A DNA stretch of 64,000 nucleotides from Candidatus Omnitrophota bacterium (GCA_016214285.1 JACROV010000079.1:6855-70854); one strand, 5' to 3'. Shown: positions 2,839 through 62,870, numbered from the stretch's first letter. Numbers and translations: made by a program. The notes: generated from the sequence alone by a model not told the origin.

Positions 2839-3627
2839 ATGTGGAATTATTTTAAATCATTTCCAGGGGGCGCGGTTTCCCGGCTGGTTCTTTATATCGG
2901 GGAGATCGCGGTTCTTTTCGGACAAACCGTTTATTTGTGTTTCGTCCCGCCGTTTAAGGGTGAACGGGTCCTTATTCAATCCAAACAGATAGGCCCGGGC
3001 AGCTTTTTTATTTCAGCGCTGGTCGCGTTTTTTATCGGAATGATCATGGCCCTGCAGATGGCGTACCAGATGACCAAGCTGTCCGCGGAGATCTATATCC
3101 CCAACGTCATCGCGGTCTCATTGACCCGGGAACTCGCCCCCGTTTTGACGGCGCTCATCGTCGCCGGCCGCGTCGGGGCCGGCATTACGGCGGAATTAGG
3201 ATCCATGACGGTCACTGAACAAGTCGAGGCCCTCAAGGCGTTTGCCGTCAACCCGATCAAATATCTCGTCGTGCCGCGATTTTTGGCGCTTATTGTGATG
3301 CTGCCGATGTTGAGCATTTTCGCGGACTTGATCGGGATCATGGGCGGATTCGTCATCTGTGTGACCAAGCTTTATATCAGTCCGGCATTGTATTTTACGA
3401 TGATCGCCGAATCACTGGCGATCAAGGATGTCATGACGGGGTTGTTCAAGACGATCTTCTTCGGCGCTATTATCGCGCTGGTGGGGTGCCACCAGGGATT
3501 GAACGTCAGAAGCGGCGCGGAAGGGGTGGGAAGGGCGACCACGATCTCGGTCGTGGCTTCGTTTATTTTGATCATCGTGGTCGATTGTTTGTTCACAACT
3601 TTTTTTTATTTCGTATTGCACGTATAA
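2839..3627 (+). CDS. mlaE: ABC transporter permease MlaE
   Basis: MlaE/Ttg2B-like multi-TM sequence. Its stop overlaps the start of the next gene (ATAATGA). Confidence 0.85.
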   Translation: MWNYFKSFPGGAVSRLVLYIGEIAVLFGQTVYLCFVPPFKGERVLIQSKQIGPGSFFISALVAFFIGMIMALQMAYQMTKLSAEIYIPNVIAVSLTRELAPVLTALIVAGRVGAGITAELGSMTVTEQVEALKAFAVNPIKYLVVPRFLALIVMLPMLSIFADLIGIMGGFVICVTKLYISPALYFTMIAESLAIKDVMTGLFKTIFFGAIIALVGCHQGLNVRSGAEGVGRATTISVVASFILIIVVDCLFTTFFYFVLHV

Positions 3628-4400
3628 TGATCGAGATAGCGCATTTGCACAAATCGTTCGGCAACCACGTCATCCTCAATGACTTGAATCTCACGATCAA
3701 GGAAGGGGAGACGAAGGTCATCATCGGCCGTTCGGGAACCGGGAAAAGCGTTCTTTTGAAGAACATCATCGGGATCCTGCGCCCCGATTTTGGCTCGATC
3801 AAAATCAGCGGCACGGAAGTCACAACCCTTAATGAGCGCGATTACAATAAGATCCGCATGCAGATGGGGATGGTGTTTCAGGGCGGGGCCCTGTTCGATT
3901 CGATGAACGTCGCCGAGAACGTGGCGTTCGTCCTGGATGAATTCATGAGCGTGGACAAAAAAACGGTCCGGGCGAAGGTTGAGCGGTGCTTGGGGATGGT
4001 GGGCTTATCCGGTATCGAAGAAATGATGCCGTCGGAATTAAGCGGCGGGATGAAAAAGCGTGTGAGTCTGGCAAGAGTTTTGTGCATGGAACCGCGGATC
4101 ATTTTTTATGACGAACCGACGACCGGAGTTGACCCCATCACATCTGATGTCATCAACAACTTGATCGTTGATCTGCGCCATAAGCTTAAAGTGACCTCGA
4201 TCGTGGTCACGCATGACATGAATTCGGCGTATAAAGTGGCCGATAACATCGCGATGCTCTATCACGGGCAGGTGGTGGCCGAAGGGACGCCGCAAGAAAT
4301 TCAGAGCACGAAACATCCGGTCGTCAAGCAGTTCATCAACGGCGAGGCTAGGGGCCCTATTACGGAAAACGAAAACCTGATTTTTGGATACACAGACTAA
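3627..4400 (+). CDS. mlaF: ABC transporter ATP-binding protein MlaF
   Basis: Walker A GRSGTGKS, signature LSGGMKKR, Walker B IFYDEPT. The ATG at 3627 overlaps the mlaE stop. Confidence 0.85.
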   Translation: MIEIAHLHKSFGNHVILNDLNLTIKEGETKVIIGRSGTGKSVLLKNIIGILRPDFGSIKISGTEVTTLNERDYNKIRMQMGMVFQGGALFDSMNVAENVAFVLDEFMSVDKKTVRAKVERCLGMVGLSGIEEMMPSELSGGMKKRVSLARVLCMEPRIIFYDEPTTGVDPITSDVINNLIVDLRHKLKVTSIVVTHDMNSAYKVADNIAMLYHGQVVAEGTPQEIQSTKHPVVKQFINGEARGPITENENLIFGYTD

Positions 4401-4424
4401 CAAACGTAACAAACGGAGATCTAT

Positions 4425-5111
4425 ATGCCCAAAGAAAAGAGTCTCGAATTCAAAGTTGGTTTTTTTGTCCTGCTTGCGTTGATCGGTTTGGCAGTTTTTA
4501 TATTTTCCATCACAGACTCCCCGATTTTTGAGGGGGGCAAGACGCTCAAGGCGGTTTTTAATTTCGCCAACGGCTTGAAAAAAAGCGCGCCGGTGCGTAT
4601 CGCCGGGGTGGATCAGGGGATCGTTAAAGAGATCAAATTGTTTTTTGACCCGCATGTCCGCAAGGCCAAGGCCGAGATCGTGCTTTGGGTGAAAAAAGAC
4701 GTCCAGATCCCCCAAGATTCTACCATTATGATCAACCAACTGGGGTTGATGGGTGAAAAGTACATCGAGATCACGCCGGGAGCGGACACCCGGGAATTCC
4801 TTCAGGAGGGACAGGTGATGGTGGGCATCGACCCCATCGCCCAGGAAGCGATCGCCCAGAAGGTCATGGAAGTTGCTTCCGGTCTCGATAAAATGATCAG
4901 CGATGAGAAAACAAAGAATTCGATCAGCGCCACTCTGGAGAACTTGAGCCTGGTGACCGGGAATTTAAGAGATATTACCTCAAGCGTCAAGGACGGTAAA
5001 GGGACCTTGGGCAGGATCCTTTACGACGAGCGGTTGTATGATGATCTGCAGGGGCTCACCGCGGATTTGAAAACGAATCCCTGGAAACTTTTATACCGGC
5101 CGAAGAAATAG
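4425..5111 (+). CDS. mlaD: MCE-domain protein MlaD
   Basis: N-terminal TM helix followed by an MCE domain. Third gene of the mla operon. Confidence 0.8.
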   Translation: MPKEKSLEFKVGFFVLLALIGLAVFIFSITDSPIFEGGKTLKAVFNFANGLKKSAPVRIAGVDQGIVKEIKLFFDPHVRKAKAEIVLWVKKDVQIPQDSTIMINQLGLMGEKYIEITPGADTREFLQEGQVMVGIDPIAQEAIAQKVMEVASGLDKMISDEKTKNSISATLENLSLVTGNLRDITSSVKDGKGTLGRILYDERLYDDLQGLTADLKTNPWKLLYRPKK

Positions 5112-5125
5112 GATTTTTTCGAAAA

Positions 5126-6487
5126 ATGAAGACCAAAACACTTTTTGTCTGCCAGAACTGCGGTACCCAATCTCCCAAGTGGGTCGGACGATGTCCGGGC
5201 TGCCAGACCTGGAATACGTTCGTCGAGGAAACCGCGCCTTCGGCTATCGAAGAAAGAACGGGGATCGTTTTTAAGGACGAGCCGGTCCTTCTCAATGAAA
5301 TTTCCACGGAACAAAAAGAGCGCTGGACGACGGGCATCAGCGAGTTCGACCGTGTTGTCGGCGGCGGCATCGTGCAGGGTTCGGTGACGCTCATCGGCGG
5401 CGATCCGGGAATAGGCAAGTCGACCCTTTCTCTGCAGGTCGCCTCGGCATTAAGTCAAAAGGGCCTCAAGATCCTTTATGTCAGCGGTGAGGAATCCGTC
5501 CAGCAAACCCGTCTGCGCGCCCAGCGTCTGGGAGCCGGGGCCAACAAATCTTTATATATCGTCAACCAGGTCGATCTCGATACAATTGTGGGTTATATCG
5601 AGAAAATGGCGCCGGAGGTCGTGGTTGTTGACTCCATCCAGGTTTTGTACAGCGCAGAGATCTCATCTTCCCCGGGAAGTGTTAGTCAGGTGCGGGATTG
5701 CGCGGCCATCTTGACCCATTTGGTCAAGATCAAAGGCATTTCCCTGTTTATTATCGGCCACGTCACCAAAGATGGAATGCTCGCCGGCCCGCGGGTGCTG
5801 GAGCATATCGTTGATACGGTCCTGTATTTTGAGGGCGAGCGGTATTCGATGTACCGGGTGCTGCGCGCGACCAAGAACAGGTTCGGGTCGACCAACGAGA
5901 TCGGCGTTTTCGAAATGGCCTCGGCCGGCTTGATCGAGGTTTCCAACCCGTCGGAAATATTTTTGTCCGAACGCCCGCACGATAGTTCAGGGTCGGTCGT
6001 GGTGCCTATTATCGAAGGAACGCGTCCGTTCCTGGTGGAGATCCAGGGACTGATCAGCCGTTCGAACTTCGGCATGGTCCGCCAAAAGGCGCAAGGGTTC
6101 GACGCCAACCGTTTGGCCATGCTCGTTGCTGTTTTAGAGAAACGCTTGGATCTTAATTTGCAGGATAAGGATATTTTTTTGAACGTCGTTGGCGGTGTCA
6201 GGCTGATGGACCCGGCGGCGGATCTGGGGGTCGTGATCGCGGTAGCTTCCGCTTTGCTGGATAAACCGGTCGCGTTCGATACGGTCATTCTGGGAGAAGT
6301 CGGGCTTTCGGCGGAGGTGCGCAGCGTCCCGCAGATGGCCGTGCGTGTCCAGGAAGCCCAGAAGCTGGGGTTCAAGCGCTGCATTGTTCCGCAAAACAAT
6401 TTGAAGATGAACAAGGAATTGGACGTCCGCGCGATAAAGATCATCGGTGTGGAAACGGTCAGGCAGGCGCTGGAGGAGCTGACATAA
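5126..6487 (+). CDS. radA: DNA repair protein RadA/Sms
   Basis: N-terminal C4 zinc finger CQNCGTQSPKWVGRCPGCQTW, RecA-like ATPase GGDPGIGKST, Lon-like C-terminal domain. Confidence 0.95.
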   Translation: MKTKTLFVCQNCGTQSPKWVGRCPGCQTWNTFVEETAPSAIEERTGIVFKDEPVLLNEISTEQKERWTTGISEFDRVVGGGIVQGSVTLIGGDPGIGKSTLSLQVASALSQKGLKILYVSGEESVQQTRLRAQRLGAGANKSLYIVNQVDLDTIVGYIEKMAPEVVVVDSIQVLYSAEISSSPGSVSQVRDCAAILTHLVKIKGISLFIIGHVTKDGMLAGPRVLEHIVDTVLYFEGERYSMYRVLRATKNRFGSTNEIGVFEMASAGLIEVSNPSEIFLSERPHDSSGSVVVPIIEGTRPFLVEIQGLISRSNFGMVRQKAQGFDANRLAMLVAVLEKRLDLNLQDKDIFLNVVGGVRLMDPAADLGVVIAVASALLDKPVAFDTVILGEVGLSAEVRSVPQMAVRVQEAQKLGFKRCIVPQNNLKMNKELDVRAIKIIGVETVRQALEELT

Positions 6488-6591: not shown

Positions 6592-7635
6592 ATGACATTA
6601 CTGTTCATCCGCAGCCTGTTCGTGATTATGAGCGGGGTCGTCGGGTATTACATTGGCATGCTCGTCCAGTATCCGCTTTTGGGAACGGAGCTGGGCTGTT
6701 TGGGCGGTTTGACCATTATTTTCATTGAGCACCGGTTGCAGCGCGTTTCGGTGAAGGGTTTATCGAGCATGGTTTTCGGCCTGCTCTTAGGTATCTTCAT
6801 GGCCAAATTGCTCTCTGATATTATTGCCTTGCTGCCGCTGGGGGAATTTGTCCATTCCATTTTACGGGTCGTGTTGACGCTGGTCTTTTCTTATTTCGGG
6901 GCGGTCATGGCGCTGCGCGGCAAGGATGAATTCAACGTGATCATCCCTTACGTGCGCTTCAAGCGCCAGGATGTGCGCGGCGAGGACGTCTTGCTCGACA
7001 CCAGCGCCATCATCGACGGCAGGGTTGTCGATATTTGCAAAACGAACTTTCTGACGGGGCGGCTCGTCGTGCCCCGCTGTGTCCTTCAGGAATTGCAAAA
7101 GATCTCCGATTCCGCCGATGACATCAAACGCGAACGCGGCCGGCGCGGCATGGAATTGCTGCGTCATATGCAAAAAGATTCCAGGATCGAGATCCATGTC
7201 CACGAAGAGGATTTGCCGGATATCGACAATGTGGATGAGAAGCTGGTCAAGCTCGCCCGGATGATGGATGCGCGTATTTGCACGACGGATTTTAATTTGG
7301 GCCGCATCGCCGTATTGCAGGGGGTTGAAGTTTTAAACATCCATGAACTGGTCAACGCGGTGAAATCCGTTGTCCTGACCGGGGAGAGGCTGGAGGTGAG
7401 GCTGGTGCGGGAAGGCAAAGAACCCGGCCAGGCCGTCGCCTTTCTGGAGGACGGCACGATGATCGTGGTCGGCGACGCCCAGAAATTGATCGGCAAAAAA
7501 GTCACCGTCGCCGTGACCTCGGTTTTACAGACGCAGGCCGGTAAAATGATCTTCGCCAGGCTTCCGATAGGCTCCCTTCGGCCAAAGGCTCCTCCCCCTC
7601 GGGGGACCTCTGGCCGCGGGGAGGAGGAGAAATGA
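6592..7635 (+). CDS. yacL: YacL-like membrane protein with PIN and TRAM domains
   Basis: N-terminal TM helices, a PIN domain and a C-terminal TRAM-like beta domain. Its position between radA and ispD matches Firmicutes. Confidence 0.75.
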   Translation: MTLLFIRSLFVIMSGVVGYYIGMLVQYPLLGTELGCLGGLTIIFIEHRLQRVSVKGLSSMVFGLLLGIFMAKLLSDIIALLPLGEFVHSILRVVLTLVFSYFGAVMALRGKDEFNVIIPYVRFKRQDVRGEDVLLDTSAIIDGRVVDICKTNFLTGRLVVPRCVLQELQKISDSADDIKRERGRRGMELLRHMQKDSRIEIHVHEEDLPDIDNVDEKLVKLARMMDARICTTDFNLGRIAVLQGVEVLNIHELVNAVKSVVLTGERLEVRLVREGKEPGQAVAFLEDGTMIVVGDAQKLIGKKVTVAVTSVLQTQAGKMIFARLPIGSLRPKAPPPRGTSGRGEEEK

Positions 7636-8327
7636 CAACAAAAGCCATTATTGCCGCGGGCGGTTTGGGAACGCGTTTAAAGACGATCCACCCAAAGCCG
7701 CTGGTCATGCTCAACGGTAAACCGCTTCTTGCCTACAGCGTTGAGGTCTTCGACAAATTCCCCTTGATCGACGGTATTATTATCGTTACGCATGAATACC
7801 ATGTCCTGGACGTGGAGGACGTGGTCCGGCATTATAACCTTCAGAAAATAGAGCGTATCGTCATCGGCGGCGAAACGCGTTCGGCCTCCGTTTATAACGG
7901 CCTGCGCGAAGCCGGGGAGAAGACGGATATCGTGGTCATCCACGACGGGGCCAGACCGCTCATCAAGGCCCAGACGATCCAGAAGGCCATTGAGCAATGT
8001 AAAATTCACGGGGCGGCCGTCGTCGGTGTTAAGGTCAAGCCCACGATCAAGAGGGTCGATCCTCTGAGTTTATTTGTGCGCGAGACATTGAACCGCGGCG
8101 AACTTTGGGAGATCCAGACTCCGCAGGTATTTAACCGTGAGCTTCTTTTAAAAGCTTATGCCCAAAAGGGTGCTGAAGATCCCACCGATGACGCTGGCCT
8201 GGTCGAGCGTATGGGTGTTCCGGTCAAGGTCGTTGAGGGCGATTATGAGAATATCAAGATCACGACCAATGAAGACCTGGTTTTGGCCGAAGCGTTCTTG
8301 AGCGCCCGCGCGAATATCCTAGTATAG
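7632..8327 (+). CDS. ispD: 2-C-methyl-D-erythritol 4-phosphate cytidylyltransferase
   Basis: N-terminal AIIAAGGLGTRL motif and IspD family similarity throughout. Confidence 0.9.
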   Translation: MTTKAIIAAGGLGTRLKTIHPKPLVMLNGKPLLAYSVEVFDKFPLIDGIIIVTHEYHVLDVEDVVRHYNLQKIERIVIGGETRSASVYNGLREAGEKTDIVVIHDGARPLIKAQTIQKAIEQCKIHGAAVVGVKVKPTIKRVDPLSLFVRETLNRGELWEIQTPQVFNRELLLKAYAQKGAEDPTDDAGLVERMGVPVKVVEGDYENIKITTNEDLVLAEAFLSARANILV

Positions 8328-11106: not shown

Positions 11107-11720
11107 AAGGAAGATTTATCACGTTTGAAGGTTCCGAAGGCTCGGGGAAAAGCACCCAGATCGAGCTGGTTTGCCGCTATTTGAAAAGAAAAAGACGGAA
11201 AGTCCTGTTCCTGCGGGAGCCGGGCGCGACCAGGATCAGCGAGCAGATCCGCCGCATCCTTTTGGACGTCGGCAGCGCGGGCATGAGCGACGAATGCGAG
11301 ACGCTTTTGTACATGGCGGCGCGGGCGCAACTGGTACGCGAGAAGATCATCCCGGCGTTGCGTAAAGGGAGGGTCGTTCTTTGCGACCGTTTTCTGGATT
11401 CCACACTCGCTTATCAAGGGTACGGCAATGGCGTGGATATCGCTTGGATCAAACAGCTTGGCCGGTTCGCGACCGGCGGCGTCACTCCGGATCTGACGCT
11501 TTTTTTTGACATCGACGCGAAGAAAGGCTTGGGGCGGATCGTCCGTCCCAAAGACCGCATCGAGCGCCGCAGTGTTCTGTATCATAACCGTGTGCGCGCG
11601 GGATATCGGGCTCTGGCCCGGCAGGAACCGAAGCGGATCAAGTTGATCAAAGTCAACGGCGGTAAGGCAGAGATCCATTTGGTCGTGCGCGATCACATCG
11701 ATGGTTTATTGGGTTTATAG
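11103..11720 (+). CDS. tmk: Thymidylate kinase
   Basis: P-loop FEGSEGSGKST and LID region. The ATG at 11103 overlaps the cysS stop (ATGA); the listed ORF begins at 11091. Confidence 0.9.
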   Translation: MKGRFITFEGSEGSGKSTQIELVCRYLKRKRRKVLFLREPGATRISEQIRRILLDVGSAGMSDECETLLYMAARAQLVREKIIPALRKGRVVLCDRFLDSTLAYQGYGNGVDIAWIKQLGRFATGGVTPDLTLFFDIDAKKGLGRIVRPKDRIERRSVLYHNRVRAGYRALARQEPKRIKLIKVNGGKAEIHLVVRDHIDGLLGL

Positions 11721-13961: not shown

Positions 13962-13990
13962 CCCGCTCCGTGGCTTTCTCTTATTCGCCG
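13962..13990 (+). terminator. Rho-independent terminator after yaaT
   Basis: Hairpin gccacagggcccgctccgtggc followed by a T-rich tract. Confidence 0.6.
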
Positions 13991-14075
13991 CAGAGGCGGC
14001 GAATAACTCCAGCGTTTGATTCATTCCGAAATATCAATATTCCCGGGATGAATCAGCTGGAGTGACCACCCTTGT
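13990..14075 (+). repeat. Post-terminator repeat element, family B copy 1
   Basis: ttattcgccgcagaggcggcgaataa hairpin followed by a conserved ...ccgaaatatcaa...cccgggatgaatcagctgg block. A near-identical unit lies at 28707-28795. Confidence 0.6.
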
Positions 14076-14113: not shown

Positions 14114-14281
14114 ATGGAAATTCTGAAGTGGTTTAAGATGTTTTTCCGTGAAAATAATAGGCGTCGATTATTGCGGCAGCAGTTAGAGAAAGAATCCAAG
14201 GTAACTCGGGCAGCCTCGCTGGAAGTACTCCACGAGATGGAAGAACTGGATGACGATTTGAACTGCGAATTCGGTCATTAA
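14114..14281 (+). CDS. Small hypothetical protein (56 aa)
   Basis: ATG with ribosome-binding site taaggaagg. Its 3' end overlaps the first GAATT hairpin. Below the 60-aa cutoff of the ORF track. Confidence 0.3.
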   Translation: MEILKWFKMFFRENNRRRLLRQQLEKESKVTRAASLEVLHEMEELDDDLNCEFGH

Positions 14282-14472
14282 TGACCGAATTTGAATTGCC
14301 CGGGCGACAGGTGAATTCAGTCGGTGCCGACTGAATTTGGACTGCCCAAGCGACAGGCAAATTCAACCGACATCGGCTGAATTCGAATTGCCCGAGACGT
14401 GAGATGAATTCCGCAGACGTCTGCGGAATTGCCCGCGGCAGGGACGCGGGGAAAAGCGGCGGAGGGAAAAGG
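14267..14472. repeat. Array D1: four GAATT-flanked 25-nt palindromic hairpins separated by (t)gaattgcccgggcgacag units, ending in a G-rich tract
   Basis: Hairpins gaattcggtcattaatgaccgaatt, gaattcagtcggtgccgactgaatt, aattcaaccgacatcggctgaatt and gaattccgcagacgtctgcggaatt. The terminal gaattgcccgcggcagggacgcggggaaaagcggcggagggaaaagg recurs at 16578 and 18011. Confidence 0.75.
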
Positions 14473-15372: not shown

Positions 15373-16605
15373 TGCGATTCGTTCATCGTCTCATCGAAAA
15401 TGAACTTTTAAAGGCCGCCCGCAATTTCCCGGCGATTCTCTTTGACCGGCCCGCGCCGGGCCGGGAAAACAACGCTTTTAAAAAAGTTGTTCCCCAAGGC
15501 CTCGTATTATCTCCTGGAAGACCCCGACATTGTTGCCCGCGTCCGGACTGATCCGCGTTCTTTTCTTGAAGAGATCAGGCTGCCGGTCATTCTCGATGAA
15601 ATCCAGAACGTCCCCGAACTGTTCAATTACGTGCGCGCGCGGATTGATAACGCTCCACAGAAGTTCGGACAGTGGTTTCTGACCGGGTCCCAGGAAGCCG
15701 GGCTCATGAAGGGGGTGACGGAGTCCATGGCTGGCCGCGTGGCCGTGTTTGAGCTTTTGCCGTTTTCGATAGGTGAGACATCCGGAGTTTCCATTTTTCG
15801 CGGAGGATTCCCGGAGGTTCTGGCCAGACCCCGGGCGGGCGATATCTGGTTCCGGTCGTACCTTCAGACGTATCTGGAAAGAGACGTGCGCGCGGTCAGC
15901 TCGATCAAGAGCGTGACGACATTCCGGCGTTTTTTGTCTCTGTTGGCCAGCCAGTGCGGGCAGATCCTGAACAAGACCGATCTCGCGGCCCCTTTGGGGG
16001 TGAGCGTGCCCACGTTGAGCGAATGGATCCATATCCTTGAGACCACGGGTCAGATCATCCTCGTGCCGCCTTTTTATGAAAATTTCGGCAAACGGATCAT
16101 CAAATCCCCAAAACTCTATTTTGTGGACTCCGGGTTGGCGTGTCATCTTTTGAATATCTCTTCCGAGAAAATGCTTTTTTCTTCGCCGTTTCTGGGAGCT
16201 GTCTTTGAAGGGTTCATCGCCGCGGAAATCATCAAATTCCAGATAAATACCGGCAAGAGAAAAGAGCTGTATTATTTTCGGGACCAGCAGGGCCTGGAAG
16301 TTGATTTTTTGATTCCGCAGGGGGACCGCCGGCTCATCCTTCTGGAGGCGGAGGCAACCAGGACGCTTCGGCCGCAGATGGCGGAACCCCTCAAACGGCT
16401 GGCGCACAATATCGCGCGTTACGAGGTTGAGCAGTGGGTTGTCTGTCCTGATTCCCAAAAAGGAGAACCCCTGCGCGCCTTAAGCCCGGGCACAAAGGCC
16501 CTTTCCGTGAAGGGGCTGTTGAGTGCTTTGAAGGGGCAGCTTTCCGGAACACCCGGTGCTGTCAAGGGCCGGACGGCGAATTCCACCGGCGCCGGTGGAA
16601 TTTGA
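15373..16605 (+). pseudogene. AAA_14/DUF4143-family ATPase, frameshifted near 15440
   Basis: Frame 1 from the ATG at 15373 gives MRFVHRLIENELLKAARNFPAILFDRPAPG. The P-loop TGPRRAGKTTLL continues in another frame (the listed ORF starts at TTG 15442). One extra base at about 15437-15440 separates the two frames. The C-terminus runs into the hairpin array. Confidence 0.6.
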
Positions 16606-16716
16606 ATTGCCCGGGCGACAGACGAATTGAGTCGGTGCCGACTGAATTGTAGTGTAAATTTGAATTCGTCCCGACGTATCGTCGGGACGAATTGCCCGCG
16701 GCAGGGGGGGGGGGAT
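16578..16716. repeat. Array D2: three GAATT-flanked palindromic hairpins plus a gaattgcccgcggcagg(g)n tract
   Basis: gaattccaccggcgccggtggaatt, gaattgagtcggtgccgactgaatt and gaattcgtcccgacgtatcgtcgggacgaatt, then gcccgcggcagggggggggg. Confidence 0.75.
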
Positions 16717-17972: not shown

Positions 17973-17997
17973 CCCGGCAACACCGGGTGTTGCCGGG
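17973..17997. repeat. GGCAACACCGGGTGTTGCC palindromic element, family E copy 1 (intergenic)
   Basis: Perfect 25-bp palindrome cccggcaacaccgggtgttgccggg. Other copies at 24383-24403 (inside alr) and 61947-61975 (inside lnt). Confidence 0.8.
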
Positions 17998-18010: not shown

Positions 18011-18122
18011 CGAATTCAGTCGACGTCGACTGAATTTGAATTCGTCAGATATCTGACGAATTCGCCAGCTAGCTGGCGAATTGCCCGCGGCAGGGGTGCT
18101 GGAAAGCGGCAGAGGGGAAAGG
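18011..18122. repeat. Array D3: two GAATT-flanked palindromic hairpins plus a gaattgcccgcggcagggg... G-rich tract
   Basis: cgaattcagtcgacgtcgactgaatt and gaattcgtcagatatctgacgaattc, then gccagctagctggcgaattgcccgcggcaggggtgctggaaagcggcagaggggaaagg. Confidence 0.75.
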
Positions 18123-18637: not shown

Positions 18638-20154
18638 AGACTCCATTTTACGTCACAACTCCTATCTATTACGTCAACGATAATCCACACATCGGGCACG
18701 CGTACACGACGATCCTTGCTGATGTTTTGGCGCGTTACCACCGTAACGAGGGCGATGAAGTCTTTTTCCTGACGGGTCTGGATGAGCACGGGCAAAAGGT
18801 CCAGCAGGCGGCGCAGAAGCGTGGAGTTCCCGAGCAGCAGCATTGCGACGAGCTCGCGCCGCGGTTTTCCGACCTTTGGAAGAAGCTCGAGATCCAGAAC
18901 GACGATTTTATCCGCACCACCGAGCCGCGGCATATCAAGGCCGTCCAGGCCGCGCTGCAGAAAGTGTATGACGCGGGGGACGTTTATACGGATGAATACG
19001 AAGGCTGGTACTCGGTCGCTGAGGAACGGTTCATCACCGATACCGAGAAAGATTCCGGACATTTCCGCGACGTTAAAAAACTAAAGGAGCGCAATTATTT
19101 CTTCAAGATGAGCAAATATCAGCAAAAGCTCATCGACTATATCAACGCCCATCCGGAATTTATCCAGCCCGAACATCGCAAGAATGAGGTCTTGGGATTT
19201 TTACGCCAGCCGCTGGGGGACCTGTGCATCTCGCGTCCCAAATCGCGCATGGGCTGGGGCATCGAGATTCCTTTTGATAAAGAGTATGTCACCTATGTCT
19301 GGTTCGACGCGCTGATCAATTACATCACGGCATCGGGATATTTGGTAGATGAGAAAGAATTCAAGAAGTGGTGGCCGGCGTCGGTCCATTTGATCGGCAA
19401 AGACATTTTGACGACCCACGCGGTGTACTGGCCGACGATGCTTTTTTCATTGGGGCTGCCGCTGCCGAAAACCATCTTTGCCCACGGCTGGTGGCTCATC
19501 GGCGAAACGAAAATGAGCAAGTCGTTGGGGAATGTCGTTGATCCTTTAAGTTTGGTTGACCAATACGGCGTTGACCCGGTGCGCTATTACCTGATGCGCG
19601 AGATGGTCCTGGGGCAGGACGCCAATTTCACCATGGAATCGTTCATCAAACGCTACAACAGCGACCTGGCGAATGATTTCGGGAATCTTTTGAATCGTGT
19701 CAGTGGTCTTATTGGAAAATATTTTGACGGCTGCGTTCCCAAAGAAGGTCAGGCGTGGGCGCCGGATAAGGAGATCAGGAAGGTTGCCGACGGGCTGGCC
19801 AAGAATATCGAAGAGTTGATCAATGGCATGCGCGTCCACGAGGCCCTTGAACAGGTTTTGGTGTTGATCCGCAACACCAACGTGTATATGGAACACCAGG
19901 CGCCTTGGAAAGAGGCGAAAGAGAATTTGGAACGGGCGGGAACGATCCTTTATACAGCAACGGAGGCGCTGCGCGTCAGCGCGATTCTGCTTCTTCCGGT
20001 TATGCCCGCGAAGGCGAATACGGTTTTAGAGATTTTAGGAGCGGTGGGGACAGAGCCGTGCTGGGGGCAGCTCAAGGCCGGGGCAAAATTACAAAGCCAC
20101 GACGCGCTTTTCCCGCGATTAGACGCTGAAGGCAAGGTTATAACTAAGAGTTGA
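18634..20154 (+). CDS. metG: Methionine--tRNA ligase (short form)
   Basis: HIGH motif (PHIGHAYT), KMSKS, connective-peptide zinc-knuckle region and an anticodon-binding domain. No C-terminal EMAP domain. Confidence 0.95.
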   Translation: [506 protein letters not shown]

Positions 20155-20232
20155 GGTCACAAAGTCACCCGGTCACAACGTCACCAGTATTTTTTACCTG
20201 TGACTTTGTGTCTTTGTGACATGGTGACCACT
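20155..20232. promoter_or_regulatory. Long imperfect palindrome built from GTCAC half-sites downstream of metG
   Basis: ggtcacaaagtcacccggtcacaacgtcacc ... cctgtgactttgtgtctttgtgacatggtgacc. It may act as a bidirectional terminator and/or an operator upstream of mtnA. Confidence 0.45.
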
Positions 20233-20246
20233 TCGAAAGTATTATT

Positions 20247-21329
20247 ATGTCTATTCAAACGATCAGTTGGGTCAACGGTCACGTCAAGCTCATCGACCAG
20301 ACCAAACTTCCCGGGAAATTGGTTTACATCCATTGCCGCGACGTCAAGACACTGTGGCAGGCGATCCGGCGTTTGAGTGTCCGCGGCGCGCCGGCCCTTG
20401 GCGTGGCGGCGGCGTTCGGAGTTTTACTGGGGATCAAATCTTTTTCCGGTTCCGGTTCCCGTTCCAGGAACCGGAACGACCGGAAACATTTTAGCAAGCA
20501 TGTGGATCAGATAAGCGATTATATCGCCGCCTCGCGCCCGACGGCGGTGAATCTTTTTAATGCTCTGGCGAGGATGAAACAGGTTGTCCATCGTCACCCT
20601 GACGCAAGCGTTGGCGGACTGAGAAATCTTTTGAAAAAAGAGGCGCTGGCCATTTATGAGGAAGACCGCAAGCTTTGCCGGCGGATGGGAACCTTTGGCG
20701 CGCGCCTTATCCCGTCGGGTGCCAACCTTTTGACCATCTGCAATGCCGGCGCGCTGGCGGCCGTCGATTACGGCACCGCGTTAGGTGTCATGTACAGCGC
20801 CAAGGCGAAGGGCAAGAAATTCCAGGTTTACGCGTGCGAAACGCGGCCGCTTTTGCAGGGCGCGCGGCTGACGGTGTGGGAACTCTTGCGTTCGGGCATT
20901 GATACGACGTTGATTTGCGACAACATGGCCGCAACGTTGATGAAGCAGGGCAAGGTTGACGGGGTTTTTACCGGCGCTGACCGCATCGCCGCTAACGGAG
21001 ACACGGCAAACAAAATCGGGACGTACAACCTGGCCGTTTTGGCCAAACATCACCGGATCCCTTTTTACGTGGTCGCTCCCCGGTCGAGTTTTGATCTCTC
21101 CATCAAAAACGGCCGGCAGATCCCGATCGAACAAAGAAGCAAGGAAGAGGTCCTGGGTTTTGGCGGCTGCCCGACGGCGCCGCGGCAGGTGAAGGTGTAC
21201 AATCCCGCCTTTGATGTGACGGACAACAGGTTGATTGCGGCGATTGTGACGGAGAAAGGAATCATCCGCCAGCCGTTTGTGAAAAATATAAAGAGGGTCT
21301 TTGAACGGAGAAACCATTCCGGCGAATAA
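20247..21329 (+). CDS. mtnA: S-methyl-5-thioribose-1-phosphate isomerase
   Basis: eIF-2B/MtnA family motifs (ETRPLLQGARLTVWEL, DRIAANGDTANKIGTY). Contains a low-complexity insert SGSGSRSRNRNDRK encoded by a palindrome at 20443-20486. Confidence 0.85.
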   Translation: MSIQTISWVNGHVKLIDQTKLPGKLVYIHCRDVKTLWQAIRRLSVRGAPALGVAAAFGVLLGIKSFSGSGSRSRNRNDRKHFSKHVDQISDYIAASRPTAVNLFNALARMKQVVHRHPDASVGGLRNLLKKEALAIYEEDRKLCRRMGTFGARLIPSGANLLTICNAGALAAVDYGTALGVMYSAKAKGKKFQVYACETRPLLQGARLTVWELLRSGIDTTLICDNMAATLMKQGKVDGVFTGADRIAANGDTANKIGTYNLAVLAKHHRIPFYVVAPRSSFDLSIKNGRQIPIEQRSKEEVLGFGGCPTAPRQVKVYNPAFDVTDNRLIAAIVTEKGIIRQPFVKNIKRVFERRNHSGE

Positions 21330-21557: not shown

Positions 21558-22451
21558 ATGTCTCTACGACTTTCCCAACTCGGCGAGTTCGGCCTCATTG
21601 ATCTTCTCAGGAAATATAAGGGAAGCGGCGCGGGCGTCATCAAGGGCATCGGCGATGACACGGCCGTCGTGCCGCTGGACGCTAAACGGTATCTCTTGCT
21701 GACGACGGACATGCTGATGGAAGGCGTGCATTTCGAACGCAAGACGCCACCACGCTTGATTGGGCGCAAGGCCTTGGCATGCAGTATCAGCGATATCGCG
21801 GCGATGGGAGGCAGGCCGCGCTACGCGCTTGTGTCTTTGGGCGTCCCGGGGAGTTTGTCCTGGGCGTTTGTCCGTGATCTGTATAAAGGCATGGACGCGC
21901 TGGCGCGCAAATTCGGCGTTGCCGTCGTCGGCGGGGACACCGTTAAAAGCGCCAGGCTCGTGATCAATGTCGCTCTTACGGGTGAGGTTAACAAGACTGA
22001 CGTAGTTTATCGAAGCGGCGCCCGGCCGGGTGATCTGATCTTTGTAACAGGGCCGGTGGGAAAATCTTTGTCCACGGGCTGGCATCTGAAATTCGCCCCG
22101 CGCGTAAAACAAGCGCGGTATTTGGTTGAGCATATCAAACCGACATCCATGACCGATATCTCCGACGGGCTGGCGGCGGATCTGGGGCACATTCTGGAAG
22201 AGAGTAAGGTCGGCGCTGTTCTGGATGAGAAGAAAATCCCGCGGCGCGCCGGTGCTAATTTGCGCCAGGCGCTTTATGACGGGGAAGATTTCGAGCTTTT
22301 GTTTACAGTTCCTCGTCGCAAGGCCGCCTTATTAAGAAGGAACAAATTTTATCTCATTGGCGAGATCGTCCCATGGTCTAAGGGATTGTTATTACGGGAT
22401 AAAAACCAGCGGTTAACGAAGATTAATATTCAGGGATATACACACTTTTAA
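21558..22451 (+). CDS. thiL: Thiamine-monophosphate kinase
   Basis: AIR-synthase-related N- and C-terminal domains (GDDTAV, LLTTDMLMEGVHF). Confidence 0.85.
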   Translation: MSLRLSQLGEFGLIDLLRKYKGSGAGVIKGIGDDTAVVPLDAKRYLLLTTDMLMEGVHFERKTPPRLIGRKALACSISDIAAMGGRPRYALVSLGVPGSLSWAFVRDLYKGMDALARKFGVAVVGGDTVKSARLVINVALTGEVNKTDVVYRSGARPGDLIFVTGPVGKSLSTGWHLKFAPRVKQARYLVEHIKPTSMTDISDGLAADLGHILEESKVGAVLDEKKIPRRAGANLRQALYDGEDFELLFTVPRRKAALLRRNKFYLIGEIVPWSKGLLLRDKNQRLTKINIQGYTHF

Positions 22452-22921
22452 TGAAAAGCGTCGCTATATTGTCGAAGAGTACGGATCAGACCATCAAGGT
22501 GGGCGAGCGGCTGGCCAAGCATTTGAAAAAAGGGGACATCGTGTGCCTTCAGGGCGATCTGGGCGCGGGCAAGACGACCTTCATTAAAGGCGTTGCTAAA
22601 GGCTTAAAGATCGCTCCGTCCAAGGTCAACAGCCCGACGTTCGTTCTGATGAACGCGTATCATGGGCGCCTGCCGCTTTACCATTTTGATCTTTACCGTC
22701 TCGAAGATACGGGAGAGATCGGGGCCATCGGATATGAGGAATTTTTGTATGGCGACGGAGTGTCGGTCATCGAATGGGCTGAACGTCTGGGGCCGCTGAC
22801 CCCGAAGGAATATTTGCGCGTTGAATTAAAACATAAAAGCGAAAATGAACGTTCGATCAAACTTGCGGCGGTTGGAGAAAAGTATTGTCGAATTACGAGA
22901 GGACTGGTTAATGGTAAATAG
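22451..22921 (+). CDS. tsaE: tRNA threonylcarbamoyladenosine biosynthesis ATPase TsaE
   Basis: YjeE family. P-loop GDLGAGKTTFIKG. Confidence 0.9.
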   Translation: MKSVAILSKSTDQTIKVGERLAKHLKKGDIVCLQGDLGAGKTTFIKGVAKGLKIAPSKVNSPTFVLMNAYHGRLPLYHFDLYRLEDTGEIGAIGYEEFLYGDGVSVIEWAERLGPLTPKEYLRVELKHKSENERSIKLAAVGEKYCRITRGLVNGK

Positions 22922-22969
22922 TGAATGGTAAATGGGGCCATTTACTATCCACCATTAACTATTAACCGT
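22906..22969. repeat. TGGTAAA(T)-repeat inverted-repeat hairpin
   Basis: ggttaatggtaaatagtgaatggtaaatggggccatttactatccaccattaactattaacc. A similar architecture lies at 54123-54225. Confidence 0.55.
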
Positions 22970-22972
22970 TTT

Positions 22973-23716
22973 ATGAATATCTTAGCCATTGATACGTCCA
23001 GCAAGCATTTCAGCCTCGCGGTCGCGAAGGATGGGAAGACGCTGTGTTACCGCGGCATCTTGCTCAAAAAGGTTCTCTCCGATTCGATTATGCCCGCGAT
23101 TCAGGGGATATTAAAAAAGGCGGGGCTGACACTTGCCAAACTTGATGGGTTTGCCGTCGGGCTTGGGCCGGGGTCGTTTACCAGCCTGCGCGTCGGGCTT
23201 TCGACCGTCAAGGGGTCGGCCTTCGCGCTTAAAAAGCCGGTTGTGGGCGTTCCCAGCCTGGATGTCCTGGCGCTCGACATTACGGGTGACGGACAGGTTT
23301 GTGTTGTGTGCGATGCCAAACGAAATATGGTCTACGCCTGCCTTTATCAAAAGAAAGTAGACGTATTAAAAAGAAAGAGCAAATATTTGTTAACGGATAT
23401 TCAAAATGTGTTAAAACAAATAAAAGGCGATGTCACCTTTATCGGTGACGGCGTGCCGCTTTTTCGTGAGACAATTGAAAAGGCCGCTGGGATAAAAGCG
23501 CGCTTTGCCGGCGAAAAACAAATGTACCCGCAGGCCAAGCATCTGGCAGCCTTGACCTTGAAACGGTTTGAATCGAAAGAATACGACGCGGCGGAGAGTT
23601 TGGTTCCGTTGTACCTGTATCCCGAAGATTGCCAAGTGCAGAAGAGAAGTCCTTCGACAAGCTCAGGATCCCTCGAGAAGGAGTCCCGAGCGAAGTCGAG
23701 GAAAAAGTGGGAGTAG
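22973..23716 (+). CDS. tsaB: tRNA threonylcarbamoyladenosine biosynthesis protein TsaB (YeaZ)
   Basis: Start MNILAIDTSS. Inactive Kae1/YgjD-like fold. The listed ORF begins at 22925 inside the hairpin. Confidence 0.85.
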   Translation: MNILAIDTSSKHFSLAVAKDGKTLCYRGILLKKVLSDSIMPAIQGILKKAGLTLAKLDGFAVGLGPGSFTSLRVGLSTVKGSAFALKKPVVGVPSLDVLALDITGDGQVCVVCDAKRNMVYACLYQKKVDVLKRKSKYLLTDIQNVLKQIKGDVTFIGDGVPLFRETIEKAAGIKARFAGEKQMYPQAKHLAALTLKRFESKEYDAAESLVPLYLYPEDCQVQKRSPSTSSGSLEKESRAKSRKKWE

Positions 23717-23770
23717 AGAGTGGATAGTTATGATATACTTTGCTTAAGCAATTAAGAGCAAGGAGGAGCC

Positions 23771-23971
23771 ATGATAAAAATTAGAGAGTTGGAGAAGGGC
23801 GTGTTAAGCCTGCCGGATAAATACTTTGCCCGGTTCAGGGCCTGGTTTCATAAACTTGAGGCGGAAAGATGGGACAAGCAGTTTGAACAAGATGCCGCCT
23901 CCGGCAAACTGGAGCATCTGGCCGTCAAAGCACGCCAGGATTTCGCAAAAGGAAAATGTAAAGAGTTATGA
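23771..23971 (+). CDS. Putative antitoxin (66 aa) of the RelE/ParE module
   Basis: Small gene whose stop overlaps the start of the toxin gene by 4 nt. Confidence 0.5.
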   Translation: MIKIRELEKGVLSLPDKYFARFRAWFHKLEAERWDKQFEQDAASGKLEHLAVKARQDFAKGKCKEL

Positions 23972-24222
23972 GGCATTTTGCCGATCCTTCTTTTTGGAAT
24001 TGTTATCGTAGACTCCCCAAGCATATACGGCAACTGGCCGACAAGAATTTTGTACTCCTCAAAGAAAATCCTCACCATACGTCCCTGCACTTGAAAAAAG
24101 TCCGTAAGTACTGGTCGGTCAGAATCGGCATCAAATATCGGGCTTTGGGCGTTGAAGTCGCGGGAGGAGTGGTGTGGTCCTGGATAGGCACGCATGCGGA
24201 GTATGGCAAGCTGGTGAAATAG
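23968..24222 (+). CDS. RelE/ParE-family type II toxin
   Basis: ParE/RelE fold signature ...WSVRIGIKYRALGVEV..VVWSWIGTHAEY. Confidence 0.7.
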   Translation: MRHFADPSFWNCYRRLPKHIRQLADKNFVLLKENPHHTSLHLKKVRKYWSVRIGIKYRALGVEVAGGVVWSWIGTHAEYGKLVK

Positions 24223-24294
24223 CAATTCCCGCCCGTGGGCGGGAATTCGAATTAACGCCGGCCGATACCAATTGACAGAGGGCAAATTAAGAAA

Positions 24295-25446
24295 ATGAAT
24301 AAACATTTAACTTGGGCACAGATTGATTTAAGCGCCATCCGGCATAATTTTCGGGTGCTACAACGGCTGGCGGGAATACCCACGGCAACACCCGGTGTTG
24401 CCGCGGGTTCGGGGAAAGTGAAAATCCTCGCCGTCATCAAGGCGGACGCGTACGGCCACGGGATGCTGGTCGCGAAGGTTCTCGTTAAAGAGAAGGTGGA
24501 TTTTATCGGGCTATCGAATCTGACCGAAGGGATCGCTTTACGCGAGGCAGGCATCAAAACGCCGGTCCTTTTGTTTGAAACGACCCTCGCTGAACAAGCC
24601 CAAAATATTATTGACTACGAGCTGACCCCGACGATATGCACGCATGAATTGGCCGCGGCGTTGAACCGCTACGCGCAGAAACGTAAGCGCGTGGTGGATA
24701 TCCACGTCAAGGTCGATACCGGCATGGGGCGCCTGGGCGTCTGGCATGAAGAGGCTTTGGATTTTATAAAGAAATTAAGCCGTCTGCGGAATTTGCGGGT
24801 CCAGGGGATCTGCACCCATTTCCCGTCGGCGGATACGGACCAGGCGTTCACGCGCCGTCAGATCAGAGATCTGGAGAATTTAGTTTCGCGGCTTAAAGCC
24901 GGAGGGCTTCATGCTCTTTACGTCCACGCGGCCAACAGCATGGGGCTGGTTGGATATCCGAACAAGATTTTGAATCTCGCGCGGCCGGGATTGATGCTCT
25001 ACGGCCTGTATCCGCGTCCGGGATTGGAAGAGAAAGTCAATTTGCGCCCGGCGATGAGTATCCATTCGAAGATCATCTTTTTAAAGCGCATTGAAAAGGG
25101 AAGAAGCATCAGTTACGGCCGGACGTTTATCGCCTCGCGGCCTATGACGGTCGCGACCTTGCCGATCGGTTACAGCGATGGATATCTGCGCGGACTCTCC
25201 GGCAAGGCGGACGTTCTTGTCGGCGGCCAGCGTTGTCCGGTTCTGGGCCGTGTCACCATGGACCAGATCGTTGTTGATGTTTCCAAGATTAAAAATCCTC
25301 GGCTGGGGATGCCGGTTGTCATTTTAGGAAAGCAAGGGAAAGAGGAAGTCTGCGCTTATGAGCTCGCCCAACTCGTCCGTACGATCAATTACGAGATCGT
25401 CTGCAGCCTCGGGAGCCGCTTGCCGAGGTTGTATAAAAAAGCTTGA
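24295..25446 (+). CDS. alr: Alanine racemase
   Basis: PLP-lysine motif VIKADAYGHG and a C-terminal beta domain. Carries an in-frame 21-bp palindrome insertion (TATPGVA) at 24383-24403. Confidence 0.9.
   Translation: MNKHLTWAQIDLSAIRHNFRVLQRLAGIPTATPGVAAGSGKVKILAVIKADAYGHGMLVAKVLVKEKVDFIGLSNLTEGIALREAGIKTPVLLFETTLAEQAQNIIDYELTPTICTHELAAALNRYAQKRKRVVDIHVKVDTGMGRLGVWHEEALDFIKKLSRLRNLRVQGICTHFPSADTDQAFTRRQIRDLENLVSRLKAGGLHALYVHAANSMGLVGYPNKILNLARPGLMLYGLYPRPGLEEKVNLRPAMSIHSKIIFLKRIEKGRSISYGRTFIASRPMTVATLPIGYSDGYLRGLSGKADVLVGGQRCPVLGRVTMDQIVVDVSKIKNPRLGMPVVILGKQGKEEVCAYELAQLVRTINYEIVCSLGSRLPRLYKKA
24383..24403. repeat. Family E palindrome copy 2, in-frame inside alr
   Basis: cggcaacacccggtgttgccg encodes ..TATPGVA.. 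. The alr N-terminal linker is about 8 aa longer than in E. coli Alr at this position. Confidence 0.75.
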
Positions 25447-28674: not shown

Positions 28675-28708
28675 AAGCCCTGAACCAGAACATGGTCCAG
28701 GGTTTTTT
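28675..28708 (+). terminator. Rho-independent terminator
   Basis: gccctgaaccagaacatggtccaggg followed by TTTTTT. Confidence 0.65.
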
Positions 28709-28795
28709 ATTCGCCGCAGTGGCGGCGAATAACCCCCCAGCGCTTGATTTATCCCGAAATATCAAGATCTCCGGGATGAATCAGCTGGGGTGAGC
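28707..28795 (+). repeat. Post-terminator repeat element, family B copy 2
   Basis: ttattcgccgcagtggcggcgaataacccccc agcgcttgatttatcccgaaatatcaagatctccgggatgaatcagctgggg. Matches 13990-14075. Confidence 0.6.
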
Positions 28796-61301: not shown

Positions 61302-62870
61302 TTGTTCTCTGGAAAATATCCATTGGTACGAATACTTTTCTTGAACGCTTTGTCCGCGGGGCTGCTCATTTTGGCGTTCCCCCAAACGGATATCTGGCCC
61401 TTGGCCTGGATCGGGCTTGTTCCTTTGTTGCGCGGTCTGGACGGGCAAACGCCGGCGCGCGCGTTCGCTCGCGCGTATTTGTGCGGCATCCTTTTTTTTG
61501 CCGGGACGCTTTACTGGCTGATCCATGTGACGTTACCGGGAATGGTTTTGCTGGCCGCGTACCTTGCCGTCTATTTCGGCCTCTTCGGGGCTGGATATAA
61601 TTTTCTTGCCGGATCAAAAACAGCCTGGAAACCCTTCGGTATCGCCGGCCTGTGGACGCTTTTGGAATTCACCCGGGCGCATTTCTTGACCGGGTTTGGG
61701 TGGGCCAGCCTGGGGTATTCGCAATACAAAAATCTTTTGTTCATTCAGATCGCGGACTTGACGGGCGTTTACGGGGTGTCGTTTTTGGTCGTGCTGATCA
61801 ATTGTTTCTTGAAAGAAATTCTTGAACTTGTTCTTGCTCAAAAACGTTTCGGCAAAAGCGTGTTAGTTTTATCGTTGCGCGTTCCTGTCATCGTGCTGGT
61901 GCTGGTGTCGGGATACGGTATATCGCGGTTAACGCAGTTGCGTCAGACCACGGCAACACCGGGTGTTGCCGTGGTTCCCCAGGCCTCGATCGCGGTCATC
62001 CAGGCGAACATCCCGCAGTCGATGAAATGGTATGAACCCGCCTGGCCGGACATCATGGCGCGTTACAAGATCCTTACCGGGGCCGCGGCAAAAGAGAAGC
62101 CGGATCTGATCATCTGGCCGGAAACATCTTATCCCGGGATATTATGGGAAGATAAGAAATTATTTGACGAGCTGCGGGGTTTCGTCGCGCGGCTGGGTGT
62201 CCCGCTTTTGGTCGGCTCGATCGTGCGCGAGAACGGCCATTACTATAATACCGCCATTTTGTTATCAAAAGACGGGGAGATCCTTCAGCAATATAAAAAG
62301 ATCCATCTGGTGCCCTTCGGAGAATATATTCCGTTACGTCCTTTATTTCCCTTTTTAGAACATATTGTGCCCATCGCGGATTTTACGGCCGGCGGAGAGT
62401 ACACCGTTTTTGATTTTCCGCAAAAGGAGGGCGCCAAAGCCAAGGGTGGCGGGAGATCTTTTTCCGTTCTGATCTGTTTTGAGGATACGCTCGCGGGGCT
62501 CACGCGGCAATTCGTCCGGCAGGGGGCGGGACTTTTGGTCAACATGACCAACGACGCCTGGTTTAAGGATACCAAAGAGCCGTTCATGCACGCGCAGGCG
62601 TCGGTTTTCCGAAGCGTAGAGAACCGGCGGTCGCTGGTACGCGCCGCCAACACGGGGGTGAGCTGTTCTATCGACGCCTCCGGGCGTGTGGTCCAGGCCG
62701 TAGCGGATGAGCGCGGCAAGAAAACCTATGTGGCGGGATACGCGATCATGAAGGTCCGGTTTGACCGGCAAAAAACTTTTTATACGCGCTACGGAGATGT
62801 TTTTATAATGGGTTGTTGCGCGTGTCTGTTATGGGCGGCCGTCCGCAGGAGAAGGATCTTCAAACGGTAA
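61302..62870 (+). CDS. lnt: Apolipoprotein N-acyltransferase
   Basis: N-terminal TM domain and C-terminal CN-hydrolase domain (WPETS.., VLICFED). Contains an in-frame family E palindrome (TTATPGVAVV) at 61947-61975. Confidence 0.85.
   Translation: MFSGKYPLVRILFLNALSAGLLILAFPQTDIWPLAWIGLVPLLRGLDGQTPARAFARAYLCGILFFAGTLYWLIHVTLPGMVLLAAYLAVYFGLFGAGYNFLAGSKTAWKPFGIAGLWTLLEFTRAHFLTGFGWASLGYSQYKNLLFIQIADLTGVYGVSFLVVLINCFLKEILELVLAQKRFGKSVLVLSLRVPVIVLVLVSGYGISRLTQLRQTTATPGVAVVPQASIAVIQANIPQSMKWYEPAWPDIMARYKILTGAAAKEKPDLIIWPETSYPGILWEDKKLFDELRGFVARLGVPLLVGSIVRENGHYYNTAILLSKDGEILQQYKKIHLVPFGEYIPLRPLFPFLEHIVPIADFTAGGEYTVFDFPQKEGAKAKGGGRSFSVLICFEDTLAGLTRQFVRQGAGLLVNMTNDAWFKDTKEPFMHAQASVFRSVENRRSLVRAANTGVSCSIDASGRVVQAVADERGKKTYVAGYAIMKVRFDRQKTFYTRYGDVFIMGCCACLLWAAVRRRRIFKR
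61947..61975. repeat. Family E palindrome copy 3, in-frame inside lnt
   Basis: accacggcaacaccgggtgttgccgtggt is a perfect 29-bp palindrome. It encodes TATPGVA in the same frame as the alr copy. Confidence 0.75.

Follow-up and report, generated by a model that had tools for sequence, protein, structure and literature searches.

An in-frame, hairpin-forming insertion of 24 nt, which adds the eight residues SGSRSRNR to the encoded enzyme, sets the mtnA gene of a Candidatus Omnitrophota genome and two related alleles apart from almost all of their relatives. We favour, at a probability of about 0.5, the account that this is a single-copy loop insertion that would have arisen locally by slippage and template switching, would have spread by recombination, most likely has no function and forms part of a clade-wide hairpin tendency. 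Positions refer to the whole 64-kb stretch of DNA analysed (hereafter the window), alleles with and without the 24 nt are called filled and empty, and handles beginning with L and P denote related loci and MtnA protein clusters, respectively.

The inserted hairpin and its host protein

The host gene is:

20247..21329, + strand: mtnA (S-methyl-5-thioribose-1-phosphate isomerase) CDS, 360 aa, from its ORF and its PF01008 and PDB 1t9k/2yrf matches

Its product is an exact match to NCBI MBI5024691.1 (Candidatus Omnitrophota MAG). The PF01008 (IF-2B) domain covers residues 45-340 with E = 2.6e-81, and PDB MtnA structures match with E values of 1e-106 to 1e-89 (1.4e-106 for 1t9k). C165 (in TICNAG) and D245 (in GADRIA) are invariant in an alignment of 48 MtnA sequences and also align to the PDB homologues. 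We take this cysteine and this aspartate to be the catalytic residues, after B. subtilis MtnA; since both are invariant, the enzyme is probably intact with the insert in place.

The segment at 20443-20486 consists of the following parts:

20443..20449, + strand: TTTCCGG, left arm of an older 7-bp quasi-palindrome and source unit of the hexamer array; L001 and L004-L006, which are empty, have it as well
20450..20473, + strand: the inserted 24 nt, TTCCGGTTCCCGTTCCAGGAACCG, adding SGSRSRNR (8 codons), as delimited by filled versus empty alleles
20480..20486, + strand: CCGGAAA, right arm of the older quasi-palindrome and outer stem of the present hairpin
20444..20465, + strand: hexamer tandem array, 3.7 copies of TTCCGG with 93% matches (Tandem Repeats Finder)
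20449..20459, + strand: left arm of an 11-nt perfect inverted repeat, GTTCCGGTTCC
20467..20477, + strand: right arm of the same inverted repeat, GGAACCGGAAC, of which the last 4 nt are host sequence

The original prediction, made from the sequence of the window alone, quoted these 44 nt with exactly the right coordinates and letters and described them as an imperfect hairpin of ~19 bp translated within mtnA. Folded as DNA, the segment forms a 17-bp stem that is interrupted by a 3-nt bulge and closed by a 7-nt loop, at -17.5 kcal/mol (z = -4.5), and none of 200 dinucleotide shuffles folds as stably; as RNA it reaches -26.6 kcal/mol (z = -3.7). The hairpin is thus present, with a stem slightly shorter than proposed, and it is translated in frame as FSGSGSRSRNRNDRKH within the ORF that carries the PF01008 match (E = 2.6e-81). 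The prediction had also read a low-complexity segment of 14 residues as an insertion. Alignment of orthologues, which it had proposed as a check, establishes a true in-frame insertion; only 8 of the 14 residues (SGSRSRNR) are new, and the flanking FSG and NDRK are ancestral.

The empty allele has the junction TTTCCGG^GAACGACCGGAAA and itself folds into a small hairpin, TTTCCGG-GAACGA-CCGGAAA (-6.2 kcal/mol, z -2.2). Filled and empty sites therefore differ by a 17-bp versus a 7-bp stem and by -17.5 versus -6.2 kcal/mol, and the 24 nt are located precisely at the 5' stem-loop junction of the older hairpin. Placement is ambiguous by 1 nt (20449-20472 is equivalent to 20450-20473). The insert has no target-site duplication and no bounding terminal inverted repeats, its junction shares only 1 nt, and the hairpin arms continue into host sequence instead of bounding an element. 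TTCCGG occurs once in the empty allele, and this copy is the ancestral one; the other copies lie within the insert.

At the protein level, the PDB homologues have 8-10 residues fewer at the insertion point. In an AlphaFold2 model of MtnA (mean pLDDT 80.5) the insert falls in a loop at residues 65-74, between helices 50-64 and 75-94, and pLDDT is below 50 at residues 70-74; the structural check suggested in the original prediction thus also places the insert in a low-confidence loop. According to this model, the insert occupies a variable linker between two helices of the N-terminal domain, i.e. a floppy surface loop, and the SGSRSRNR peptide is low-complexity and predicted to be disordered.

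Distribution of the insert and mosaicism of mtnA

We compared the loop between GAPALG and RPTAVNL in the 120 closest MtnA clusters. The standard loop length is found in 113 of them, SGSRSRNR only in P0002 and P0003, and a different 17-residue insert at the same loop in P0066; of the remaining clusters, three are off by 1-3 residues and one is shorter by 1 residue. A second protein search centred on the loop segment returned no further carriers or intermediates. At the nucleotide level, the filled allele TCC GG[T TCC GGT TCC CGT TCC AGG AAC CG]G AAC (insert in brackets) is present in the window, L002 and L003, and the empty allele TCC GGG AAC GAC CGG AAA in L001, L004-L010 and L013, with synonymous variants in L007, L009 and L013; in L001 and L004-L006 the longer stretch TCT TTT TCC GGG AAC GAC CGG AAA is shared. 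The segment is thus either absent or present with identical palindromic codons, and conservation with non-palindromic codons, which the original prediction had named as evidence against an insertion, was not found. Its reading of the mtnA insertion is supported as essentially right.

Palindromes can confuse assemblers, and the window comes from a metagenome-assembled genome, so an assembly or sequencing artefact has to be considered. However, the three filled assemblies are independent and derive from different data sets (i.e. the window's NCBI MAG, GCA_016212005.1 and the Logan assembly of SRR8797412), and they differ in their flanking sequences, with the insert identical and in frame in all three. 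We regard the chance of an artefact as negligible.

The insert is single-copy and lineage-restricted in the searched DNA, i.e. the window, 187 kb of related loci and 185,579 species-representative genomes. In the 64-kb window, neither a search with the 24-mer that allowed three mismatches nor one with an 11-mer recovered a site other than mtnA, and the 187 kb of related loci yielded no copy beyond mtnA itself. An exact 23-mer of the insert has one match in the 185,579 genomes, namely the mtnA of the carrier L003, and the L003 assembly therefore holds no second copy. A multi-copy mobile element of RPE or MITE type was rejected, mtnA being the sole site in all three data sets, and the part of the original prediction that treated the hairpin as a palindromic element is not borne out. 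Intermediate alleles of +6, +12 or +18 nt were found in none of the databases searched, and a metagenome scan for the exact flanks separated by a gap of 0-30 nt returned one contig with an empty site and no intermediate.

The distribution of the insert does not follow a simple vertical history. Across mtnA, the window shares 97.3% of nucleotides with L001 (the empty sister strain), 85.6% and 81.8% with the filled L002 and L003, respectively, and 78-81% with the remaining empty alleles; L002 in turn has 83.0% identity with L007, which is empty, but 78.9% with L003, which is filled. A neighbour-joining (NJ) tree of mtnA needs at least three gain or loss events, and simple vertical descent was rejected; the tree itself is not meaningful because the gene is a strong recombination mosaic among related groundwater Omnitrophota. 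Sliding-window identity between the window and other alleles swings from ~65% to 100% along the gene (e.g. ~95% with L002 at alignment positions 180-450 and ~76% at 480-540). Between the window and L001 there are 28 SNPs, mainly in two clusters, and the alleles are otherwise identical apart from the insert. One of these clusters adjoins the indel:

20396..20474, + strand: tract differing from L001 by six SNPs and the 24-nt indel, with identical sequence on both sides

The six SNPs (20396, 20399, 20411, 20420, 20426 and 20450) are all at third codon positions and amount to 6 of 28 SNPs within 55 nt (alignment positions 150-204; P = 0.003). Such a cluster is what would be left by the import of standing variation and not by new mutations, and we interpret the tract as the probable recombination event that brought in the insert. 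The mosaic structure of mtnA, together with the position of the indel in a third-position SNP cluster, can explain the patchy spread. Short recombination tracts, we infer, carried the insert from one population to another, so that repeated insertion or excision is not needed. One feature is awkward. The insert and its immediate flanks form a run of 38 nt that the three carriers share unchanged, longer than any other such run (the second is 25 nt), in alleles that differ at 29-42% of third codon positions, and the L003 flanks diverge within 6-9 nt of the insert on each side. This fits poorly with simple vertical descent, and recombination would need a very short tract.

The same 38-nt run could instead reflect selection on a functional hairpin or peptide, e.g. 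as an mRNA fold that modulates the expression of mtnA or slows its translation, as a protein-binding DNA site, or as a basic flexible loop that the enzyme uses; L003 also retains the stable inner hairpin despite an eroded outer stem. Against this, the sister strain (97.3% identity) and nearly all other relatives have an intact mtnA without the insert, and the peptide is low-complexity and predicted to be disordered. No Rfam 15 covariance model matched positions 20000-21000 with E up to 1, and no terminator-like site was found. Unrelated hairpins moreover occur in loops of many other genes (next section), which favours a mutational cause over a locus-specific function. Selection for a function thus appears improbable, and the insert itself is most likely without function.

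Hairpin insertions in the clade and origin of the mtnA insert

We surveyed the window's syntenic housekeeping genes against the orthologues of eleven related loci (19 genes with orthologues), counting insertion alleles of at least 3 aa and using random coding segments of the same length as the null. Twelve of the 14 in-frame insertion alleles outdo 97% or more of these random segments in folding, i.e. almost every in-frame insertion in these ~19 genes consists of hairpin-forming DNA. The mtnA insert is one instance of this clade-wide tendency. Insertions outside the window include:

L014 ~1640-1700 (Logan SRR22388239): in-frame hairpin insertion of P0066 in the same MtnA loop, different Omnitrophota lineage, 51 nt, NRRRALGPESKQAGPKA; GGGCTTTGGGGCC...GGCCCCAAAGCCC
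L016 ~4400-4425: tsaE insertion of +21 nt, GCCTGCCTG-CCGGA-CAGGCAGGC
L003 ~5230-5275 and L004 ~5355-5400: tsaE, a further 24 nt at the 5' stem-loop junction of the +21 hairpin
L017 ~7895-7945 and L015 ~11235-11285: thiL, lineage-specific in-frame insertion that forms two adjacent strong hairpins of 24 nt, each with a 9-bp stem and a 6-nt loop
L009 ~5500-5580 and L013 ~6085-6110: tsaB, lineage-specific in-frame insertions that form strong hairpins
L015 ~3540-3565 and ~4745-4770: cysS, lineage-specific in-frame insertions that form strong hairpins

The P0066 hairpin contains a 13-bp perfect inverted repeat (-37 kcal/mol) and is unrelated in sequence to the window's hairpin in the same loop; a scan of viral contigs for it gave no matches. 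In tsaE, the empty allele encodes GR-LPLYH, and the window's own tsaE (22451-22921) is empty. The nested tsaE insert equals the mtnA insert in size and in junction position. We also noted, post hoc, that insert sizes of 24, 24, 24, 48 and 72 nt recur among 13 events. Derivation from flanking sequence differs among the insertions:

tsaE +21: flank-templated, P 0.001-0.004
tsaB +9: flank-templated, P 0.003-0.01
tsaE nested 24: not flank-templated
thiL 48: not flank-templated
alr 39: not flank-templated

Since several of the hairpin insertions are not flank-derived, a different process also operates in the clade.

Within the window, coding ORFs contain 16 perfect hairpins with stems of 9 bp or more, where codon shuffling leaves 1.9 ± 1.4; roughly half of the 16 are in spurious ORFs that overlap intergenic palindrome arrays. 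One hairpin in metG was rejected as an insertion: the 9-bp perfect hairpin at 19858-19880 (TTGGTGTTG-ATCCG-CAACACCAA) lies in the conserved codons LVLIRNTN, has one mismatch in orthologues (ACG, not ACC) and is a chance near-palindrome perfected by one synonymous change.

Two further sets of palindromes recur in the window and, in part, in related loci:

Window 17976-17994, 24384-24402 and 61952-61970, L011:7192-7210, L004:~291 and L013:~480: the GGCAACACCNGGTGTTGCC hairpin family, with the core GGCAACACC-N-GGTGTTGCC
Window 14268-14291, 14314-14337, 14407-14430, 16579-16602, 16663-16693, 18013-18036, 18039-18062, 18059-18082 and 24224-24247: (near-)perfect palindromes AATTC-N14-GAATT of 24 nt (one of 31 nt)

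The GGCAACACCNGGTGTTGCC family, probably the family E of the original prediction, is the only dispersed family among the clade inserts and has only three copies in the window (17976, 24384 and 61952). One lies in alr (CDS from 24295), as part of 39 inserted nt, GIPTATPGVAAGS, that keep the frame and are missing from the L003 and L007 orthologues. The hairpin is translated as TATPGVA there and in an lnt-like ORF (61302-62870; TTATPGVAVV), in the same frame in both. The third copy in the window is in a hairpin-rich, seemingly intergenic stretch. The AATTC-N14-GAATT palindromes have conserved ends and interiors that are all different and fully self-complementary, and many of them form arrays and have a GCCCG(C)GGCAGGG-like motif after them; in L011 (~7151-7178) a similar unit adjoins the GGCAACACC hairpin. 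The broader proposal of the original prediction, that this genome tolerates small palindromes inside coding regions, is supported, and taken further, by the genuine in-frame GGCAACACCNGGTGTTGCC insertion in alr and by the 12 of 14 hairpin-forming insertion alleles in related genomes. It does not extend to the array at 18013-18082, which appears to be upstream of the likely true start (ATG at 18170) and hence outside the gene.

Several further features of the neighbourhood were recorded. An intergenic hairpin, TTATTCGCCGCAG(A/T)GGCGGCGAATAA, occurs in two copies after genes (13981-14006 and 28707-28732) and may be terminator-like or another small repeat family. The tsaB-alr gap (23716-24295) measures ~580 nt in the window versus ~60 nt in L003; it appears to contain small ORFs at ~23772-23970 and 23970-24225, followed by an AATTC...GAATT palindrome, and relatives have toxin-antitoxin-like genes (ParE_like, PemK and HEPN/NTP_transf_2) at comparable positions. 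A 30-nt imperfect inverted repeat (83% complementary, with GGTAAAT/GGTTAAT-like units) spans the tsaE stop and the tsaB start at 22906-22967.

For the mtnA insert, we propose the following local origin. (i) The ancestral site would have been the small quasi-palindrome TTTCCGG-GAACGA-CCGGAAA; (ii) replication slippage would have recopied the host hexamer TTCCGG in tandem at its 5' stem-loop junction; (iii) template switching would then have extended the complementary arm by copying the other arm, so that the stem lengthened from 7 to 17 bp over several steps; (iv) the product, being in frame and in a predicted disordered surface loop, would have been tolerated; and (v) from what would be a single origin, short-tract homologous recombination would have spread it patchily among related, recombining groundwater Omnitrophota, presumably as a neutral variant. 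Template switching is known to render quasi-palindromes more perfect (PMC7202029) and to give rise to hairpin stems (PMC8794818).

The make-up of the insert bears on these steps. Tandem copies of TTCCGG account for ~16 of the 24 inserted nt only. The right arm GGAACCGGAAC, made of the rest of the insert and the host GAAC, is the exact complement of the left arm GTTCCGGTTCC, and such a perfect repeat of 11 nt would fit a templated last step. Of the insert, 46-67% matches 5-6-mers present in the flanks on one or other strand (P about 0.03-0.04 versus shuffles), so the case for flank templating appears moderate. An exhaustive search of exact tandem-duplication or template-switch steps, in which each of the 607,038 one-step products of the empty allele was followed by one more step, never reached the filled allele. 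A one- or two-step origin was accordingly rejected, and at least three events are needed. We hold slippage plus template switching at a quasi-palindrome as the mechanism with moderate confidence. CCGG as a special target was rejected, being common in this genome (observed/expected 1.15).

The insert might instead have been delivered as a ready-made 24 nt by a clade-specific process that inserts short hairpins, the same as for the GGCAACACCNGGTGTTGCC family and the non-templated tsaE, thiL and tsaB hairpins. Such a process would act at stem-loop junctions without target duplication and with precise loss, and the mtnA copy would be a rare or orphan member. The GGCAACACCNGGTGTTGCC family does insert in frame in this genome (alr and the lnt-like ORF); the tsaE nested 24-nt, thiL 48-nt and alr 39-nt inserts are not flank-derived; the mtnA and nested tsaE inserts share both their 24-nt length and their place at the 5' stem-loop junction of an older hairpin; empty mtnA sites are perfectly clean; and the insert is distributed patchily (at least three events on the gene tree) and is identical in alleles with only 79-86% nucleotide identity. 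However, no second copy was found in the window, the 187 kb of related DNA or the 185,579 genomes, which include a carrier's own assembly; two thirds of the insert is a tandem of the adjacent host hexamer, which is unexpected for a foreign element; and the patchiness is accounted for by the mosaic recombination demonstrated above. Delivery of a finished hairpin therefore seems rather unlikely, and we retain local slippage and template switching for mtnA.

The clade-wide excess of hairpins may be due to either an elevated rate of template switching or an undescribed hairpin-inserting activity. A bolder and more tentative suggestion, which we think somewhat doubtful, is that an unusually active process, possibly driven by an enzyme, makes or inserts short hairpins in this clade, often of ~24 nt or multiples thereof and often at the stem-loop junction of an older hairpin. 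It would account for most in-frame housekeeping insertions and for the intergenic 24-nt palindrome arrays, for unique hairpins as well as dispersed families, and the mtnA insert would be the trace left by a mutational or mobile mechanism, as yet undescribed, through which protein loops are shaped.

Taken alone, the mtnA insert is probably an ordinary loop insertion, neutral or harmless and of little consequence. Its interest is that of a well-resolved example of the excess of hairpin insertions in coding genes across the clade, in which one MtnA loop has been taken by two unrelated hairpins in different lineages and one tsaE hairpin sits within a second. Should the same be true across the genome, one class of structural mutation would largely drive the evolution of protein loops in this uncultured phylum, and Omnitrophota genomes would offer a natural system for the birth, growth and spread of palindromes inside genes. 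In practice, such inserts should not be taken for functional motifs or assembly errors.

Comparison with known systems

A full-text search for 'Omnitrophota' with 'inverted repeat' returned unrelated matches only. REP/REPIN elements, which RAYT transposases mobilise, are short imperfect hairpins of 20-40 nt in bacterial genomes; they lie outside genes, number tens to hundreds of near-identical copies and have a conserved 5' tetranucleotide. The mtnA insert is also a short imperfect hairpin, but lacks the extragenic location, the copy number and the 5' tetranucleotide. Rickettsia palindromic elements resemble it more closely, in that palindromic DNA lies in frame in housekeeping genes, is translated, is tolerated in surface regions and is present or absent among relatives. 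However, these elements measure ~100-150 bp and occur in many copies per recognisable family, whereas the mtnA insert is 24 nt long, five times shorter, and single-copy.

The GGCAACACCNGGTGTTGCC family and the mtnA hairpin are both short, translated in frame and absent from the orthologues examined. They differ in that the same GGCAACACCNGGTGTTGCC core occurs at no fewer than six non-orthologous places and is not flank-derived, while the mtnA hairpin shares no sequence with it and is confined to one locus. Stable inverted repeats inside translated, functional genes are also known from the mitochondria of Nematomorpha, where they reach 284 bp and both arms encode conserved protein regions (PMC6649704). 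The mtnA insert, by contrast, is short and adds to a non-conserved loop, so that these repeats are an analogue for tolerance, not for origin.

The closest likeness is to quasi-palindrome template-switch mutations (the Ripley model; the E. coli thyA/lacZ reporters; Loytynoja and colleagues; PMC7202029, PMC8794818), which share with mtnA an older imperfect inverted repeat, a longer and more perfect hairpin, an arm complementary to the other arm and stems inside genes. Classical events of this kind are single-step and exactly templated, whereas no exact one- or two-step path leads to the filled mtnA allele, which moreover shows tandem expansion of a hexamer and a net gain of 24 nt instead of a cluster of substitutions. 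The mtnA insert thus departs from the strict single-step pattern, but it is most like a mutation that combines quasi-palindrome template switching with slippage.
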